A DNA stretch of 24,990 nt from Patescibacteria group bacterium (lineage in GTDB: Bacteria > Patescibacteriota > Minisyncoccia > JAHIHE01), in the NCBI GenBank assembly GCA_018899995.1, contig JAHIHE010000004.1, forward strand, positions 1 through 24,990. Reading direction: 5' to 3'. A program made the position numbers and the translations under genes. Numbering within the stretch: the first letter of the stretch is position 1; each line of letters opens with the position of its first letter. A model generated the notes under the pieces. That model had not been told where the DNA came from. It made no database searches and worked only from the letters and a program-made list of their open reading frames with translations. This document shows, piece by piece, positions 7,069 to 24,990 of the stretch.

Positions 7069-8613
7069 TTAATTTAAATTTTTGTCCTCGTAGTTCAACG
7101 GACAGAACACAAGCCTCCGGAGCTTGGGATGCAAGTTCGATTCTTGCCGAGGGCACCACGTAGGAAATTGCAAGGAGTTTTGGTTCGCCTCGCTTCGCTC
7201 GGCGACTAATTCGTATTCAATTTTGGGGGTAAAAACGAATTCACGATTTCGCAAAATATGGTTCGAGCCGATGTTTTTCAGAAATGTTGTCATTGCAGTC
7301 GGATTGGGAGAGGAAAGCAGATTAGCGGCTTGATTTAAGGATTTTACGAACTCACGAGCCGGTTCGAGCCAAGACAACCCTTTTGTCTCAAAGTCGGTGA
7401 TTTTTTCGGAAAGTGATATTTTTTGAGACAGCAAAGTTTGTTTTTTGGCGGCGTATTCTTCTGTGGATAAGGCGTCAGCGAGATAGATATCTAACAACTT
7501 TTGAAGTTTTGCCTCGACTTGCGCTAATTGTTCTTTCATAACACTAACCTCGCCTTGTGCGTCCTCTCTCGCTTTATCCTGCTCACTATCCAACGCCGCC
7601 AAAACCTTCTCGGTATCTTGGCTCGACAAAGAAACTTTTTGAAGGTAAGAAGTGATTTGCTCTGTTAGTGCTTCCTCTCGCAGATAATGCTTTTCTTGGC
7701 AAATACCTTTCTTTTTCGTGCAACGATAGTAGTTATGCCTTTTCTGACGCTCTCCGGTAATTGAACAACCACACGAGGCACACTTTAGTAATCCAAGAAA
7801 AGCAAAATGATGTTTTCTCACTTCTTGCACTTTTCCACGCTTCGCCATTATCTCTTGGCATTTATCAAAAAGTTTCTTTGAAATTAACGGCTCGTGTTTC
7901 CCCTCAAAAATTTCCCCTTTCCACTTCATCAAACCAAGATAGAAAATATTTTGTAGATTCTTTTGGATATTGGCGATGACAAGTGGTTTATTGAGATTTC
8001 CACGCAAACCATTTTCATTGCACCAATTTGCGAGAGAATGAAGCGTATGCCTTCCGGTGGCGTACAATTCAAACATTTTTCTAACTTCGGGAGATTTATC
8101 TGGGTCAATATCTATTCCACGAGTTTTTGGATTATTGATGTAGCCAACCGGAGCCCAGCCGGGCCATACGCCATTTCTGATTTTCTGTCGTAAACCTCGC
8201 TTCACATTCTCTCGCAAATTGTCTACAAAATATTTTGATTGGCCAAAAGCGATGTTGAGCATAAACAACCCTTGCGGTGTTGGCTCAAACCAGAAAGTGG
8301 GAAATTTGAGAGATTTAATCAAGCCGCGATCAACAAAGTGGATTATTTTTCCACCATCAACACTGTTCCTTGCCAATCTGTCCGGGTGCCACGAAATTAT
8401 TCCGTCCGCCTTGCCTTGTTCCAGAAATGACAACATTTCGGAGAACTTTGTTCGCCCAGGTTCTTTAGCAGTCTTTGCCTCACATAGCGAGGCGACAATT
8501 TCAAGTTTTTCTTTAGCGGCAAATTCTTTTAATTCAACAAGCTGGGCTTCAATACTTAAAACTTGCCTGTCATCTTTTTCTGTGCTCTTGCGAGTGTAGA
8601 TAATGTATTTCAT
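7069..8613 (-). CDS. Large serine recombinase (resolvase + recombinase + Zn-ribbon + coiled coil)
   Basis: Catalytic YTRKST, DRLARN, CASCG...YYRC zinc ribbon. The last ~30 codons (WCPRQESNL...) are the antisense of tRNA-Arg. Confidence 0.93.
   Translation of the reverse strand: MKYIIYTRKSTEKDDRQVLSIEAQLVELKEFAAKEKLEIVASLCEAKTAKEPGRTKFSEMLSFLEQGKADGIISWHPDRLARNSVDGGKIIHFVDRGLIKSLKFPTFWFEPTPQGLFMLNIAFGQSKYFVDNLRENVKRGLRQKIRNGVWPGWAPVGYINNPKTRGIDIDPDKSPEVRKMFELYATGRHTLHSLANWCNENGLRGNLNKPLVIANIQKNLQNIFYLGLMKWKGEIFEGKHEPLISKKLFDKCQEIMAKRGKVQEVRKHHFAFLGLLKCASCGCSITGERQKRHNYYRCTKKKGICQEKHYLREEALTEQITSYLQKVSLSSQDTEKVLAALDSEQDKAREDAQGEVSVMKEQLAQVEAKLQKLLDIYLADALSTEEYAAKKQTLLSQKISLSEKITDFETKGLSWLEPAREFVKSLNQAANLLSSPNPTAMTTFLKNIGSNHILRNREFVFTPKIEYELVAERSEANQNSLQFPTWCPRQESNLHPKLRRLVFCPLNYEDKNLN
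7084..7158 (+). tRNA. tRNA-Arg (anticodon CCG)
   Basis: Acceptor GTCCTCG/CGAGGGC, D-arm GTTC/GAAC, anticodon stem CAAGC/GCTTG with loop CTCCGGA (CCG at 7117-7119), T-arm GCAAG-TTCGATT-CTTGC, encoded ACCA. Confidence 0.95.
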
Positions 8614-20262: not shown

Positions 20263-20290
20263 GTGACAGATTCTGTGAATATGCTATACT
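20263..20290 (+). promoter_or_regulatory. Putative sigma70 promoter reading into the structured repeat array
   Basis: GTGACA 20263-20268, 16-bp spacer, extended -10 TG-C-TATACT (20282-20290). Confidence 0.45.
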
Positions 20291-20388
20291 GGGGAGTTCT
20301 GAAAATGAGAAAGTAAATGCAGTTGGCGATAAGCACAATTATAAAAAGAGAGGAAAGAATGTCCAGCCACGTTCATTCTTTCCCTCTT

Positions 20389-20461
20389 AATTCTCCAAGT
20401 TTATCTTAATTAAAAAGGTAATCTTAGAAAAGCTTTTAAGAAAAAATCTTGAAGGCCTAAA
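20389..20461 (+). repeat. Structured two-hairpin repeat, copy 1
   Basis: AATTCTCCAAG...TTAGAAAA-GCTTTTAAGA/TCTTGAAGGC-CTAAA. Confidence 0.85.
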
Positions 20462-20642
20462 TTGCACATTGAAAAATATAAAAAACCACCCCCATTCATT
20501 TTTATTTTTTCCTTGTCGGGTTTTGGCGCAAAGAGGCTAAAAAAGTTTTGGCCTTCCCGCGCCGAGACTCGACTGGATTTTTTCAGTTTTTTAGTTGAGT
20601 TCTTGGCGAAACTGATTGTAAAAAAAATTGGAGGGAAAAAAT

Positions 20643-21038
20643 ATGAAAAATATCAGAAAAAGGTTTGAAAGACTGATAAGAATTTGCACCAATAATGTCG
20701 GCTGCAAATTCAGCCAGGAATATACAAGACTGGCTATGCAGTCTGAAGAAAACTTCAAGGTAGCTCTTGAAGTAAAAGAAGAGTGGAACAAGTGTCACAG
20801 GATAGACTTCAGGCTTCCAGATACGGAATGTATGAAATACGTCCTGGGATACACGTCTTCCTGGATAGCGAAGGAAGATGTTAAATTCCTTCGAATTGAA
20901 AAAAGGTGTGCACCCGATTGGGGGACGTATGAAGGCGGCGAGTATGAAGTCGCCGTCTATGAAGTAAACGGGGAAGAAAAAATGGCCACCGATTGGGACC
21001 CCGAAACTATGAGACCACTCCCGATGGGGTGCTCATAA
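20643..21038 (+). CDS. Hypothetical protein (cargo between repeats 1 and 2)
   Basis: GGAGG SD at 20630-20634 before ATG 20643; no recognisable motif. Confidence 0.7.
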   Translation: MKNIRKRFERLIRICTNNVGCKFSQEYTRLAMQSEENFKVALEVKEEWNKCHRIDFRLPDTECMKYVLGYTSSWIAKEDVKFLRIEKRCAPDWGTYEGGEYEVAVYEVNGEEKMATDWDPETMRPLPMGCS

Positions 21039-21107
21039 AAAGTAAAAAGGTTGTCTGGCAAGCACTTGCCGGGCATGGGAAAGTACCTTAAATCTAAAAT
21101 CTTTCCC

Positions 21108-21179
21108 AATTTTTCCAAGTTTATCTTAAATGAAAGGTAAATTTAGAAAAGCTTTTAAGAAAAAACTTGAAAGCCTCAA
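21108..21179 (+). repeat. Structured two-hairpin repeat, copy 2
   Basis: AATTTTTCCAAGTTTATCTT...AAGGTAAATTTAGAAAA-GCTTTTAAG/CTTGAAAGC-CTCAA. Confidence 0.85.
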
Positions 21180-21345
21180 GTCTTCAAATCGCGGAAACGC
21201 GAAGAGAAGCATGCACATTGATAAAAAGGAAAGGTTATTAAAGGGTTTATCTTCGGGGTAATTTTGGTCGCTAATTTTAACGGCCAGAATTACCCTGAAG
21301 ATCGCCAAAAGTTTTGGTTGAATTGGAGGGGATGGAGGAAAAGAT

Positions 21346-22014
21346 ATGAAACACATAATAATTTCAGACAAATGGCAGTTTGGAACAGACCCGTTCCCGG
21401 CGTACAGGTGTAGTCTGGTTTATGGCCGGAATCAGAGAGACCGCGAGTTTCTGCCAACAAACGGAATTACTCCAACCGAGTTTGCCGTTTTTAAAAGCGG
21501 CCATGAGAAACAGGGTCCCGAATACAAGGGTACACTTGACGGAGCCCGGAAGGTGGCCGATGAATGGAATAAGGATCATCCGAAAGGGACATATGCTCAG
21601 GCGTATGTAACACACCATGGTGTTTTGCCCGAGAATAAATTTTGTGTCATCAAGACACAAGAAAAAGGCACCATTCTTGCAGTGTCCGGAGAAGACAAGA
21701 CAAATAGATGCCTGCTGTTTGTCGGATGCGCTGGTGGATTCCGTGGTGGAGTATCTGTCTTAACAGACGGAACCACAGGAACAATCCTAATCAAATGTTC
21801 CGCAGGCAACGCCTGCGAAAGTAGTGTTGAGGCCATTGCGATACTCGCGATTGGCCAGTCAATTGCGTTCCATACCAGCGGACGCCGAACCAATGAGGTA
21901 TACCAATACCTCTGGAACGGAAAAGAAGTGGAAAAGAAGCACTACTCCAAAGCCGAATGGGACAGTCGTTCTGTGGCAATAGCGCCACAAACTGCAAAGG
22001 CAGAAGTTCTTTAA
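21346..22014 (+). CDS. Hypothetical protein (cargo)
   Basis: 222 aa; GGAGG SD upstream; visibly more GC-rich than the flanks. Confidence 0.8.
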   Translation: MKHIIISDKWQFGTDPFPAYRCSLVYGRNQRDREFLPTNGITPTEFAVFKSGHEKQGPEYKGTLDGARKVADEWNKDHPKGTYAQAYVTHHGVLPENKFCVIKTQEKGTILAVSGEDKTNRCLLFVGCAGGFRGGVSVLTDGTTGTILIKCSAGNACESSVEAIAILAIGQSIAFHTSGRRTNEVYQYLWNGKEVEKKHYSKAEWDSRSVAIAPQTAKAEVL

Positions 22015-22146
22015 AAAAGAACTTCTAAATAAATTTTTAACCTTTCCTTTTTTCCTTCGAATTCATTTTGAATGCAAAGTGGATTCAAAGGAGGAAATTT
22101 GTTCTTTTCAAAAAAATAATAGCAGGGAGAAAATTGATTGCTTTTC

Positions 22147-22234
22147 TGTCAGAGGCGTAAAGCGCCGAATGACCTTTCACGAATGCGAGGGGTCGCACAT
22201 TCGTGCGGGATTCTTCGCTTCGCTCAGAATGACA
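22147..22234. repeat. CGTC-type REP pair (TGTCA...TGACA)
   Basis: Right half GGATTCTTCGCTTCGCTCAGAATGAC; central CACGAATG/CATTCGTG hairpin. Confidence 0.7.
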
Positions 22235-22315
22235 ATTATAAAAAACGGTCAGTTTTATCCCTGCTATAAAGAAAATTAGAAAAGAAACGCGGGGAGAAGG
22301 AATAAGTGATTAGAA

Positions 22316-23173
22316 ATGGTAGAATACAGATTTTTACAGTTGGACCCGCGGTCCAAAGAACAGACGGAAATCTTTATGGGGATTGAGGTTACAATCCCGA
22401 ATGTGGAAATAACATCGGGAATAAATCTCGATCATCACGGGAAAGATGATACAGCCGAAACCCCAGCGGCTTGCGAGCAGGCGCTTCAGGCGGAGTTACC
22501 GCCAGAAGACGCAACGATAGCCACGGTCCGAACCGACCAGGACAGTATTACCGCAATGGCGGTAATAGCTAACCGGGCGATCGGGCGAAAAGTGGACGAA
22601 TTAGTCGTCAGGGCAGTCGGTCTTATGGACCGGTATGGTCCCAAGGTTGAAGAGCAGCTCCGCCATGATTTGGTGGTAGCGATAGCCCGGAAGGCGGCGG
22701 ATTTCAAGGTTCCGCTTGACCAGCGAGTGGCTTTTGTCCAAGCTTGCTTGGATGGAACCTATAATCCCGAGGAAATTGCTTTACTTGTTGAAGCGCGGAA
22801 TCGAGAGTTTGAGGGGTCCCGGAAGGCAAGTCAGGTCAAAACGGCCGCCGGTGGCAGAATTGCGGTAGTTGTGTCAACGCACCGTTTTGCAACTAATCTG
22901 GGCTACGAAGTAGCGCCAGTAGTGGTTGCAACGAATCCGTCTATGCCGGTGATTGGCGAAAGTGGAAAGCCCGTAGGAGAAACCTATCTCAAGCACACAG
23001 TTTGCAGATGGGATTCAAATGTTCCGGTTGATCTTGAAGGAGCTTTGAAAGAGTTTCAAAGCATTGAACCGGGCTGGGGCGGCAGAGGCGATATCTTCGG
23101 CTCGCCACAAGGCGTGTCGTCAAAGCTTACCACCGAACAAGTGGTAGGAATGGTGGAGAAATATCTCCACTAA
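22316..23173 (+). CDS. Hypothetical protein with DHH-like phosphoesterase motifs
   Basis: NLDHHG, DQDS and C-terminal GWGGRGDIFGSP; family assignment uncertain. Confidence 0.55.
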   Translation: MVEYRFLQLDPRSKEQTEIFMGIEVTIPNVEITSGINLDHHGKDDTAETPAACEQALQAELPPEDATIATVRTDQDSITAMAVIANRAIGRKVDELVVRAVGLMDRYGPKVEEQLRHDLVVAIARKAADFKVPLDQRVAFVQACLDGTYNPEEIALLVEARNREFEGSRKASQVKTAAGGRIAVVVSTHRFATNLGYEVAPVVVATNPSMPVIGESGKPVGETYLKHTVCRWDSNVPVDLEGALKEFQSIEPGWGGRGDIFGSPQGVSSKLTTEQVVGMVEKYLH

Positions 23174-23288
23174 AGAGAAAGGACGGACTTAATCCATCCA
23201 AAAGCACTTTTGGAGCAGAAAGATAAAATGAAATGAAGGAAGTTTTGCGAAAGCGAAATTTCCCGATTATCTTGTTTTTCTGCTCCTC

Positions 23289-23359
23289 AATTTTTCTAAG
23301 TTCGTAAAATTTTTTGCGGATTTAGAAAAGCTCTCAAGAAAAAAGCTTGAAAGCCTAAA
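23289..23359 (+). repeat. Structured two-hairpin repeat, copy 3
   Basis: AATTTTTCTAAGTTCGTAAAA...TTTTGCGGATTTAGAAAA-GCTCTCAAG/CTTGAAAGC-CTAAA. Confidence 0.85.
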
Positions 23360-23377
23360 AATGTTCTTTTTAAAATA

Positions 23378-23800
23378 TTATTTTTTGAAGCGATTCAGAA
23401 ATTGCCGCGGAGTAAGAACTGGAATATTTTGAAAAGATTTTAGTTTCAGCAGATGTTTGTCGCCTGAGATAATAAAATCAGCTTCGGAATTTAGGGCGCA
23501 ATCCAAGATTATATTATCCGATGGATCATCTTTGATAATTTTTAATGGTTTTTCTGATGAGGAAAAAATTAAACAATCATTTATAATTGCTTTGATTATT
23601 TTTTCTGCCGTTAAGTTAATTTTTAGCAGAGGAATAGCAAATTTTGGATAATTTAAAACGCGAGTTATTTCTTGGATTATTTGAAGATTGATAGATACTG
23701 TAATTTGATTTTTCCGGAATAAAGCATAAAGAGATTCTAATTCTTTGTTTCGCCAAATAAGCATTGAAATAAAAATATTTGTGTCAAAAACAACCCTCAT
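23378..23800 (-). CDS. PIN-domain toxin (COG1569-like)
   Basis: MRVVFDTNIFIS, DDPSDNIILDCAL, DFIISGDKHLL. Start moved to ATG 23800. Confidence 0.9.
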   Translation of the reverse strand: MRVVFDTNIFISMLIWRNKELESLYALFRKNQITVSINLQIIQEITRVLNYPKFAIPLLKINLTAEKIIKAIINDCLIFSSSEKPLKIIKDDPSDNIILDCALNSEADFIISGDKHLLKLKSFQNIPVLTPRQFLNRFKK

Positions 23801-23804
23801 AAAA

Positions 23805-24026
23805 TTATTTAGGCTTATTTCGCGCCCAACAAATAGCATCTCGAATATCTTTTTTGGAAATCAATTTTCCAAGCTTAAGAAGATCGGGGCGTAAATTTTT
23901 TAATGAAGGTTCTTGAATTTTTTTAACGATAATAGTATCTTTTGATTCTCTAATAATCACTTTTTTCCCTATCCATTCTTTTGGTAAAACAATGCTTTGT
24001 CCAGTAAATTTAGTTTGATAATTCAT
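23805..24026 (-). CDS. Putative antitoxin (AbrB-like swapped-hairpin N-terminus)
   Basis: 73 aa immediately upstream of the PIN gene; IVLPKEWIGKKVII. Confidence 0.7.
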   Translation of the reverse strand: MNYQTKFTGQSIVLPKEWIGKKVIIRESKDTIIVKKIQEPSLKNLRPDLLKLGKLISKKDIRDAICWARNKPK

Positions 24027-24054
24027 AAATTTTTAATTATTTTCTTATAAATTT

Positions 24055-24082
24055 ATTATACTCTCTTAAAATCCAGTGTCAA
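24055..24082 (-). promoter_or_regulatory. Consensus promoter of the first TA pair
   Basis: Minus strand TTGACA (24082-24077), 16 bp, TATAAT (24060-24055). The -35 box overlaps the left edge of repeat copy 4. Confidence 0.75.
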
Positions 24083-24151
24083 TTTTCCAAGCTTATAAAC
24101 TCGTTGTAAGTTTAGAAAAGCCCCTGAATTAAAAAGATTCGGAGGCCTAAA
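24081..24151 (+). repeat. Structured two-hairpin repeat, copy 4
   Basis: AATTTTCCAAGCTTATAA...TTGTAAGTTTAGAAAA-GCCCCTGAAT/ATTCGGAGGC-CTAAA. Confidence 0.85.
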
Positions 24152-24253
24152 GTCCTCAATTCATTAGAAATAATGATAAGAGGCAAGCACATTTATAAAG
24201 GAAAGAGGGTTTTTCTCAAAAAAGAGAATCAGCCACGCCCTCTTTCCCCTCCT

Positions 24254-24413
24254 AATTTTTTCCAAGTTTGTCTTTAAATGTCATGCTGAATTTATTTCAG
24301 CATCTATAAAAGATTCTGAAACAAGTTCAGGATGACAACAAGAAAGGTAAATTTAGAAAAGCCCCCAAATAACTTATGAATTATAACAAATAACTCATAA
24401 CGAAATTGGAGGC
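24254..24413 (+). repeat. Structured two-hairpin repeat, copy 5 (both loops expanded)
   Basis: AATTTTTTCCAAGTTTGTCTTT...[59-bp REP]...AAAGGTAAATTTAGAAAA-GCCCCCAA...TTGGAGGC. Confidence 0.8.
24279..24337. repeat. CGTC-type REP pair inserted in repeat copy 5
   Basis: TGTCATGCTGAATTTATTTCAGCATCT...AGATTCTGAAACAAGTTCAGGATGACA. Confidence 0.8.
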
Positions 24414-24492
24414 GAGATCGCAAAAGGCTCCACACGGAGTATGGAGCCAACGGTAATATAATAAATGTTCTTTATAAAACAAATCACAAAAC

Positions 24493-24864
24493 TCAAATTG
24501 ATTTAACGGAGATCTCTTTAATTTTCTGAAAATGTTTTAAATTGCGAGTGGCTAGAACGCAATCAAGATAATAGCAGGTGGAAGCGATTAAAGCGTCAGC
24601 GATATTTGTCCGATATTTTTTATAGAAATCAGCCGCTTTTCCAGCGACCTGCGAAGTAATATTGATTGAAGGAAAAATAGACAGAAGCCGTTTTATTTCT
24701 ATACTTTCTTTTTTGGAAAACTTTCCGCACAGAACTTCATACTCAGTGATCACAGAAATAAAAGCGGAAAGCTTTCCTTTCTCAATTTCCTCTAAAAACA
24801 GCCCTGCTTTCGCATCGCCTCGCAAGTGATCAATTAAAATATTCGTATCAACAAGATAGCGCAT
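24493..24864 (-). CDS. VapC-like PIN-domain toxin
   Basis: MRYLVDTNILID, SVITEYEV, ADALIASTC, LATRNLKHF. Confidence 0.9.
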   Translation of the reverse strand: MRYLVDTNILIDHLRGDAKAGLFLEEIEKGKLSAFISVITEYEVLCGKFSKKESIEIKRLLSIFPSINITSQVAGKAADFYKKYRTNIADALIASTCYYLDCVLATRNLKHFQKIKEISVKSI

Positions 24865-24868
24865 AATA

Positions 24869-24990
24869 TTATTTTATTCTTTTAAATCTTTCTTTCCACC
24901 CTTTCCTCAATGAATTTTCAAAACTGATTCCTTTTAAAAATTTCTTGCCTAAAATTCCGCTAGTTTCTCCGATAATTGAAATATCTTCAG
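24869..24990 (-). CDS. Putative antitoxin, 3' part only (5' end outside window)
   Basis: Open frame ...GILGKKFLKGISFENSLRKGWKERFKRIK-stop ending 4 bp before the PIN start. Confidence 0.6.
   Translation of the reverse strand, partial: EDISIIGETSGILGKKFLKGISFENSLRKGWKERFKRIK

Follow-up and report, generated by a model that had tools for sequence, protein, structure and literature searches.

From position 20,263 onwards, the window analysed here (the whole of contig C160, 24,990 bp, from the 1.02 Mb genome G000 of 164 contigs) carries an array of gene cassettes separated by hairpin-rich spacers. The core module of these spacers is a repeat of about 80 nt with two hairpins, H1 and H2, which we call REP. 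REP recurs in related genomes between different cargo genes, and its copies on one contig all point the same way. The analysis supports selection on the array hairpins to pair on one strand, mostly the + strand, because REP covaries, G-U pairs outnumber A-C pairs, the pairs of a conserved leader (module B) vary between Watson-Crick and G-U, and the sense strand folds at lower energy. We put a probability of about one half on the reading that the junctions between cassettes are composite terminator, promoter and leader modules in RNA, which would also supply homology for cassette exchange within a hypervariable cassette island.

Strand asymmetry of the array hairpins

The array had been noticed in a first-pass annotation made from the letters alone, which listed long hairpins with G-U pairs on the + strand. 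The three stems given there were recovered exactly: 20516-20529/20559-20572 (14 bp, 11 Watson-Crick and 3 G·T pairs), 21249-21270/21281-21302 (22 bp, 19 Watson-Crick and 3 G·T) and 22059-22070/22075-22086 (12 bp, 10 Watson-Crick and 2 G·T). The GAAA loops reported with them are also present, at 21194-21197 on a CGCG/CGCG stem, at 24167-24170 on a CATTA/TAATG stem and inside 23238-23263.

That all non-Watson-Crick pairs are G-U on the + strand, as was also claimed, is true only for the stems as they had been delimited, and is overstated for the array. Stems were searched in intergenic DNA with G·T and A·C treated alike, so that neither strand was favoured. In the window alone this gave about 31 G·T against 19 A·C pairs, which is suggestive but not significant; counted among the A·C pairs is the C x A mismatch that the full-length REP copies have in stem 1. 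The hairpin at 24426-24448 runs contrary to the + strand rule, as its wobble pair lies on the minus strand. When the intergenic DNA of ten arrays from six genomes was searched, 184 G·T pairs stood against 100 A·C pairs (binomial p 7e-7, the copies being related), and stems outside REP contributed 106 and 52 of these, respectively. In shuffled sequence the two classes were close to 1:1 (524 G·T, 487 A·C), and the ratio expected from base composition is 1.06. The strand asymmetry is genuine but moderate.

Both strands of the five spacers in the window were further compared by folding z-scores (RNA parameters, 60 dinucleotide shuffles):

20340-20642: + strand -7.5, minus strand -2.1
21039-21345: + strand -6.6, minus strand -6.0
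22015-22315: + strand -6.5, minus strand -6.6
23174-23377: + strand -8.1, minus strand -3.9
24027-24492: + strand -9.2, minus strand -7.4

The advantage of the + strand proposed at first sight is clear in three of the five spacers (the first and the last two), and the strands are about equal in the other two. For 24027-24492 the z-score favours the + strand, while the absolute energy is lower on the minus strand (-141.4 versus -129.5 kcal/mol). GNRA loops, which had been put forward as an RNA hallmark, are not enriched: among 130 four-base loops, 8 were found on the sense and 5 on the antisense strand. The loops are not conserved either: where the window has GAAA near 23250, the homologous copy of contig C161 has AAAA.

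A covarying repeat of two hairpins

REP copies were located with R1, a covariance model of the repeat, and the alignments used for covariation were fitted to this model. Six copies lie in the window:

20384-20465, + strand: REP copy 1, with H1 (TTTTCCAAG...TTAGAAAA) and H2 (GCTTTTAAG...CTTGAAGGC); R1, 75 bits
21104-21184, + strand: REP copy 2; R1, 90.8 bits
22046-22120, + strand: degenerate REP copy, whose H1 is the stem 22059-22086; R1, 28.9 bits, E 0.0055
23285-23364, + strand: REP copy 3; R1, 82.8 bits
24076-24156, + strand: REP copy 4; R1, 78 bits
24251-24421, + strand: REP copy 5, both loops holding long inserts; R1, 35.2 bits

A scan of the whole window against Rfam with E up to 1 gave no match to REP. 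The only Rfam match in the stretch was a sub-threshold hit to a microRNA model at 21236-21319 (25 bits, gathering score 94), which we take as chance. R1 found REP in 21 of 61 related genomes, almost all belonging to one order and spanning four families.

In 42 copies from about 18 genomes, 96.1% of the alignment cells in stem positions are paired, as compared to 86.5% in shuffles, and none of 500 shuffles reached the observed value. Compensatory changes occur at 13 of the 20 pairs, and slid controls stay at or below 60%. The same 42 copies hold 115 G-U cells against 32 unpaired cells, and in an alignment of 44 copies G·T pairs outnumber A·C pairs by 122 to 19; a C x A mismatch within H1, conserved in nearly every one of these copies, was not counted as a pair. 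With RNA parameters the sense strand of REP reaches a minimum free energy of -24.9 kcal/mol and the antisense strand -20.3 kcal/mol (p 6e-5). With DNA parameters the gap is nearly gone (-11.9 versus -11.1). The conserved half-sites stand between about 10 and more than 100 nt apart.

The loops of REP are polymorphic between populations, since the H1 loop of copy 5 (at 24305/24306) carries different 37-nt inserts in two other groundwater runs. Two other roles for the repeat were considered and set aside. A minus-strand Shine-Dalgarno sequence with an ATG by module B prompted a search for a coding repeat, and no frame is consistently open across the 44 copies. H2 has the geometry of a minus-strand terminator, with a stem followed by TTTTCT, but its wobbles lie 42 to 3 on the + strand.

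Putative leader and boundary modules around REP

Several further modules accompany REP. Promoters and terminators named here are pattern matches only.

20493-20594, + strand: module B, a conserved leader upstream of ORF1, recognised from its copies in genome G026 and the variation of their stems
20347-20387, + strand: hp0 of copy 1, just before the T-run of the REP
21077-21107, + strand: hp0 of copy 2, read as GGGAAAG...CTTTCCC and then AATTTTT
23212-23286, + strand: hp0 of copy 3, long and composite, with the GAAA-looped hairpin 23238-23263 inside it, a repeated module also found on C161 and in G026
21185-21235, + strand: module C, with a CGCG-GAAA-CGCG hairpin (21190-21201); relatives have a different hairpin at the same place
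21249-21302, + strand: leader hairpin 2 from the stem search, 22 bp with 3 G-U, 44 nt before ORF2
24157-24250, + strand: spacer without an ORF, with a GAAA hairpin (24162-24175), a GCAAGCACATT motif and hp0 of copy 5 (24200-24247)
23347-23376, + strand: outward promoter-like box, its -35 TTGAAA being the 3' arm of H2 and its -10 TAAAAT lying in a GTTCTTTTTAAAAT motif
20263-20290, + strand: promoter-like site pointing into the array, GTGACA, 16 nt, TATACT, with TG upstream
24426-24448, minus strand: module D, predicted intrinsic terminator of inverted cassette 2, a hairpin and then TTTT, with a wobble pair on the minus strand
22119-22267, strand not assigned: insert of about 150 nt with a 10-bp inverted repeat at its ends (ATAGCAGGGA / TCCCTGCTAT), where H2 of the degenerate REP is expected

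Module B consists, in this order, of a C/U-rich single-stranded 5' part, a hairpin of 25 pairs, a short hairpin and a T-run; the stem 20516-20572 is the outer stem of the 25-pair hairpin. Four copies in G026 are 76-83% identical and each stands behind a REP and before an unrelated ORF, so that the module precedes unrelated ORFs in two families. Its hairpin holds up to 7 G-U among the 25 pairs, all variable pairs switch between Watson-Crick and G-U, and it could not form on the opposite strand. The C/U-rich stretch (CACTCCTT in G026) resembles an anti-Shine-Dalgarno sequence and, as we read it, may pair with the downstream ribosome-binding site. The Rfam scan of the window gave no match to this leader of about 100 nt.

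The hairpin hp0 is purine-rich in its 5' arm and pyrimidine-rich in its 3' arm and is followed by a T-run directly before REP, and a hairpin of this type lies upstream of most REPs that follow a co-oriented ORF. It fits the pattern of an intrinsic terminator with a spacer of 2-8 nt before the T-run. Module D and its copies in G026, G023 and G018 show this pattern clearly, with a G+C-containing hairpin directly before a sense T-run.

Behind H2 a motif GCACATTGAAA / GTTCWTTNAAAA recurs. In some copies a TAAAAT-like box comes 16-18 nt after the H2 3' arm, which reads TTGAAA or TTGAAG, and the two make a promoter-like site on the + strand; several REP copies of G026 have TTGAAG-16-TAAAAT. The + strand promoter candidate reported at 20263-20290 is there, matching the consensus at 10 of 12 positions, and remains a consensus match only. 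A minus-strand promoter-like sequence, TGGACA-16-TATAAT with 11 of 12 matches, lies at 20338-20365 inside the loop of hp0 of copy 1 and points away from the array, toward a doubtful ORF of 87-98 aa.

The spacer at 24157-24250 matches a spacer of G016 with 83% identity, and no homologue of leader hairpin 2 was found among the array loci compared. Within the insert at 22119-22267 lies a 24-nt segment (22210-22233) where the summed contig depth reaches about 94-162 at 22219 in three of four groundwater runs, as compared to a few to a few tens of units in the neighbouring bins. Many contigs break there, so this segment looks like a short repeat common to many organisms.

Position relative to genes and direction of the wobbles

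REPs that share a contig are co-oriented in 15 of 15 groups. Where a co-oriented ORF precedes a REP, the median distance from its stop codon to the repeat is about 70 nt, and the 61 nt upstream of the repeat fold at -12.2 kcal/mol, versus -6.3 kcal/mol where the preceding gene is inverted (p 0.03). In the hairpins that follow the stop codons of inverted cassettes, 20 G·T pairs stand against 9 A·C pairs on the strand that is sense for the gene and minus for the array; terminators of the canonical form, a hairpin and then TTTT (module D), are among them in four genomes. As read from these sequences, the polarity of the wobbles appears to follow local transcription and not one fixed DNA strand. 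RNA would therefore be favoured over single-stranded DNA as the folding form, since the polarity follows the local gene, the energy asymmetry of REP is nearly gone with DNA parameters, and module B is rich in G-U.

It had been proposed that the + strand acts as one long structured RNA or folded single-stranded DNA with the ORFs between its domains. The part of this proposal that stands is the selection of the hairpins to pair mostly on the + strand. The domains of a single transcript are not what the modules resemble: they are discrete and recur in other genomes before or behind unrelated genes, and many look like boundaries, with a hairpin and T-run before REP and a -35/-10-like box leaving it. 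The inverted toxin-antitoxin cassettes, moreover, have a predicted promoter of their own and a predicted terminator whose wobble lies on the minus strand.

Cassettes and genomic setting

The cassettes of the array and the predicted promoter of the first inverted one are as follows:

20643-21038, + strand: cassette ORF1, 131 aa, without family match
21346-22014, + strand: cassette ORF2, 222 aa, without family match
22316-23173, + strand: cassette ORF3, 285 aa, without Pfam match
23378-24026, minus strand: inverted toxin-antitoxin cassette 1, with a PIN toxin (23378-23839) and a 73-aa partner (23805-24026)
24055-24082, minus strand: perfect TTGACA-16-TATAAT promoter of inverted cassette 1, its -35 abutting the 5' edge of REP copy 4
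24410-24990, minus strand: inverted PIN cassette 2, toxin at 24493-24864, the partner gene cut by the contig end

ORF2 is 31% identical to an ORF of G011 that is placed directly behind a REP; ORFs of relatives were called by a simple longest-ORF rule. Clusters in a protein atlas that look like ORF3 comprise hypothetical proteins, mostly of tailed phages, and the structure neighbours of its best atlas match include DHH/DHHA1 phosphoesterases, which is a lead only. The inverted cassettes of G026 are five toxin-antitoxin modules (RelE/HigB-like, HicAB, HEPN with nucleotidyltransferase, and two PIN). Inverted toxin-antitoxin cassettes each have their own predicted promoter, which abuts the 5' edge of the next REP.

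The public runs that contain the window sequence are groundwater metagenomes, and the host is an uncultured ultra-small groundwater bacterium of the Paceibacteria in the candidate phyla radiation (CPR). The window is chromosomal, because it encodes seryl-tRNA synthetase and purD. A large serine recombinase gene with Resolvase, Recombinase and zinc-ribbon domains lies at 7069-8613, 12 kb upstream of the array; it overlaps a tRNA gene on the opposite strand (7084-7155), and no link to the array was found.

Spread of the junctions and search for a recombinase

The arrays of G016 and G018 have different cargo and apparently occupy the same chromosomal locus, beside one and the same conserved gene cluster. 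The cassette at 24410-24990 has 91% nucleotide identity (94% for the toxin protein) to a cassette of G026 (L031 3895-4479), which belongs to another family. This points to the horizontal transfer of one cassette in the recent past. On the left the homology stops at the 3' end of H2, and on the right it runs into the contig end. REP subtypes are mixed between genomes, with 12 label changes in a short alignment for which the minimum is 4 and the shuffled mean 17. When contigs from four DNA runs were compared to the array, REP polymorphism was seen and no clean insertion or deletion of a cassette.

The search for an enzyme that might move the cassettes covered several families. The integron integrase model TIGR02249 reached at best 94 bits in G000, below the cut-off of 265, with matches to Xer-like proteins on contigs C67 and C65. 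Tyrosine recombinases (PF00589) of five array-bearing relatives were all encoded elsewhere and none on the array contigs, and no recombinase was found among the tested ORFs flanking the arrays of G026, G024, G016 and G023. Reading the conserved bases TTTTCCAAG and TTTAGAAAAGC revealed no AAC/GTT pair, and no integron-type RYYYAAC/GTTRRRY cores. A transposase of the Y1 type or a REP-associated tyrosine transposase (RAYT) as the driver was rejected, as PF01797 had no match in the REP-bearing genomes G000, G001, G008 and G010. An origin of REP from the dif sites of Xer recombination was also rejected: the best dif-like sequence of G000 (contig C107 near 782, minus strand, ACACATAA GTATAA TTATGTTAACT) is unlike REP, although this is a weak test with dif undefined for the lineage. 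A pattern scan over the whole collection of genomes yielded chiefly chance matches. Among viral contigs, 25 pattern matches to REP were obtained and none was confirmed by the covariance model. Methyltransferase homologues in metagenomes were at most 43% identical and had no REP nearby. In the literature, no relevant description of integrons, attC sites or such arrays was found for CPR, Patescibacteria or Parcubacteria.

Some observations concern the borders of arrays. In G000 a stretch on contig C139 (locus L006, 3406-3494, minus strand) looks like the far end of the array: the last REP there keeps H1, and H2 is replaced by a hairpin, a T-run and a TATAAT box before core genes. A small version of H1 stands just before a rodA/ftsW-like gene on the same contig (2405-2445, minus strand). 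A gene of the CCA-adding/poly(A) polymerase family lies beside or inside the arrays of two relatives (L032 14270-16222 and L035 2972-4591), a proximity that may only reflect a shared chromosomal locus.

Interpretation of the junctions

According to the reading that we prefer, a hypervariable cassette island of a Paceibacteria chromosome would begin with this stretch, its unrelated orphan genes being read on the + strand with inverted toxin-antitoxin pairs among them. At each junction, hp0 and its T-run would end the upstream gene. REP follows, and then a promoter-like box with its -35 inside H2 may start the next unit, with optional leader modules such as module B placing a hairpin and T-run before the next ribosome-binding site. 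The hairpins would fold in RNA made from the locally transcribed strand, so that G-U pairs are expected on the + strand for + units and on the minus strand for inverted cassettes. Each junction would thus insulate and probably control one cassette and, being repeated, could supply homology for the gain, loss and exchange of cassettes. Transcription, termination, promoter activity and the role in shuffling are what we infer here from sequence.

Several points weigh against this reading. Textbook intrinsic terminators have a shorter distance from hairpin to T-run than the 2-8 nt seen after hp0. With termination at hp0 and a -35 inside H2, both hairpins of REP would fall into a gap predicted to be untranscribed, and yet they give the clearest sense-strand signal, which is easier to reconcile with single-stranded DNA or with read-through RNA. 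Judged by eye, only some one third to one half of the copies have a good promoter-like box. REP polarity is kept even between two inverted cassettes in G026, and a purely gene-serving terminator would not need this. The covariation, moreover, comes from related copies in an alignment fitted to the model.

Part of this is what one would expect if REP, alone or with hp0, were an attC-like recombination site that folds from single-stranded DNA and is served by a distant recombinase, the array being an integrase-distal, integron-like store of cassettes. The strict co-orientation of REPs whatever the orientation of the genes, the conserved hairpin base with its fixed mismatch, covarying stem and very variable loop length, and the location of H1 and H2 between a predicted terminator and a predicted promoter would all suit such a site. 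So would the cargo of orphan genes and many toxin-antitoxin pairs, the cassette shared at 91% identity between families with its left edge at the 3' end of H2, and REP subtypes that are intermixed and not homogenised between genomes. We nevertheless consider this explanation possible but doubtful. G000 has no integron integrase (94 bits against 265), the tyrosine recombinases of five relatives sit on other contigs, the tested flanking ORFs of four relatives include no recombinase, and RYYYAAC/GTTRRRY cores are absent. There are two hairpins instead of one, the gap between sense and antisense energies nearly goes with DNA parameters, the wobble polarity flips with gene direction in inverted cassettes, and the right edge of the shared cassette is unreadable at the contig end. 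The bolder proposal that REP is the recombination site of an undescribed CPR system for cassette capture, which would need no integrase close by, carry orphan genes and toxin-antitoxin pairs from one family to another and owe its sense-strand folding to a single-stranded DNA or RNA intermediate, is in our estimate unlikely.

Quite improbable, as we see it, is that REPs are selfish or neutral palindromic elements, similar to the bacterial interspersed mosaic elements (BIME) built from repetitive extragenic palindromes or to miniature inverted-repeat transposable elements, which have piled up without function in a gene-poor, recombination-prone island. Loop inserts that differ between metagenome populations and the existence of solitary REP copies outside arrays would agree with such elements, but copies on one contig are all co-oriented and keep fixed positions relative to genes, compensatory changes preserve both hairpins across four families, and the four genomes searched (G000, G001, G008 and G010) lack a Y1/RAYT-type transposase. 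That the hairpins are plain palindromes of duplex DNA, such as operators or protein-binding inverted repeats, with a G-U pattern due to chance, we regard as highly improbable. Although both strands fold better than shuffles in every spacer and the excess in the window alone (about 31 versus 19) is not significant, the family-level count is 184 versus 100 where shuffles stay near 1:1. The 115 G-U cells in REP and 7 G-U in 25 pairs of module B reflect one-sided changes only, and half-sites spaced from about 10 to more than 100 nt are unsuited to a duplex binding site.

Significance

In CPR bacteria, whose genomes are tiny, gene regulation and the acquisition of accessory genes are poorly understood. 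The junction of about 80 nt with two hairpins and the leader of about 100 nt are two structured non-coding families new to Rfam, and both mark hypervariable cassette islands in Paceibacteria of four or more families. Should the junctions be terminator/promoter/leader units, they would offer a first handle on the architecture of transcription units in this lineage and represent a cellular counterpart of shuffling motifs known from phages. If they are recombination sites, an integron-like system without a dedicated integrase nearby would be at hand. In both cases, R1 offers a means of locating islands of this kind together with their cargo.

Comparison with known systems

The array shares with sedentary chromosomal integrons and with clusters of attC sites lacking integron integrases (CALINs) its co-oriented hairpin repeats, one per cassette on the 3' side of the ORF, with a variable loop on a conserved hairpin base. 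Orphan and toxin-antitoxin cassettes and the horizontal spread of a cassette are further likenesses. It differs from integrons as no IntI was found, an adjacent IntI not being required by the definition of a CALIN, and from both in having no R'/R'' core consensus, two hairpins with extra modules and an RNA-like wobble pattern.

Enterobacterial REP/BIME sequences are extragenic imperfect palindromes, most of which directly follow genes; they are transcribed, and their folds form in the 3' region of the mRNA. The repeats described here are likewise extragenic imperfect palindromes mostly just behind genes. In contrast to the enterobacterial elements, they are clustered in co-oriented arrays in one kind of island and are not dispersed, they are much longer and modular, and G000 has no RAYT gene. 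They also differ from the cassette stacks built by Xer/dif recombination, as in integrative mobile elements exploiting Xer (IMEX), since REP is not like the best dif-like site of G000, a weak test.

The closest described analogue appears to be the promoter-early stem-loop (PeSL) of T4-type phages (PMC4122927). PeSLs are described as composite terminator/promoter motifs in the hyperplastic regions of these phages that mediate modular shuffling (PMC2839356, PMC4122927). The junctions of the window differ in lying on a cellular CPR chromosome, with no REP confirmed in viral contigs, in their greater size and modular build, with hp0, a pair of covarying hairpins and leader modules, and in having inverted toxin-antitoxin cassettes as part of the array; their promoter and terminator activity, moreover, is only predicted. 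As in the PeSLs, short conserved junctions combine a stem-loop with a predicted promoter. They lie between unrelated orphan ORFs of a hypervariable region, the kind of region in which PeSLs are described as exchange points, and the cargo of the present array includes an ORF family seen mostly in phages.

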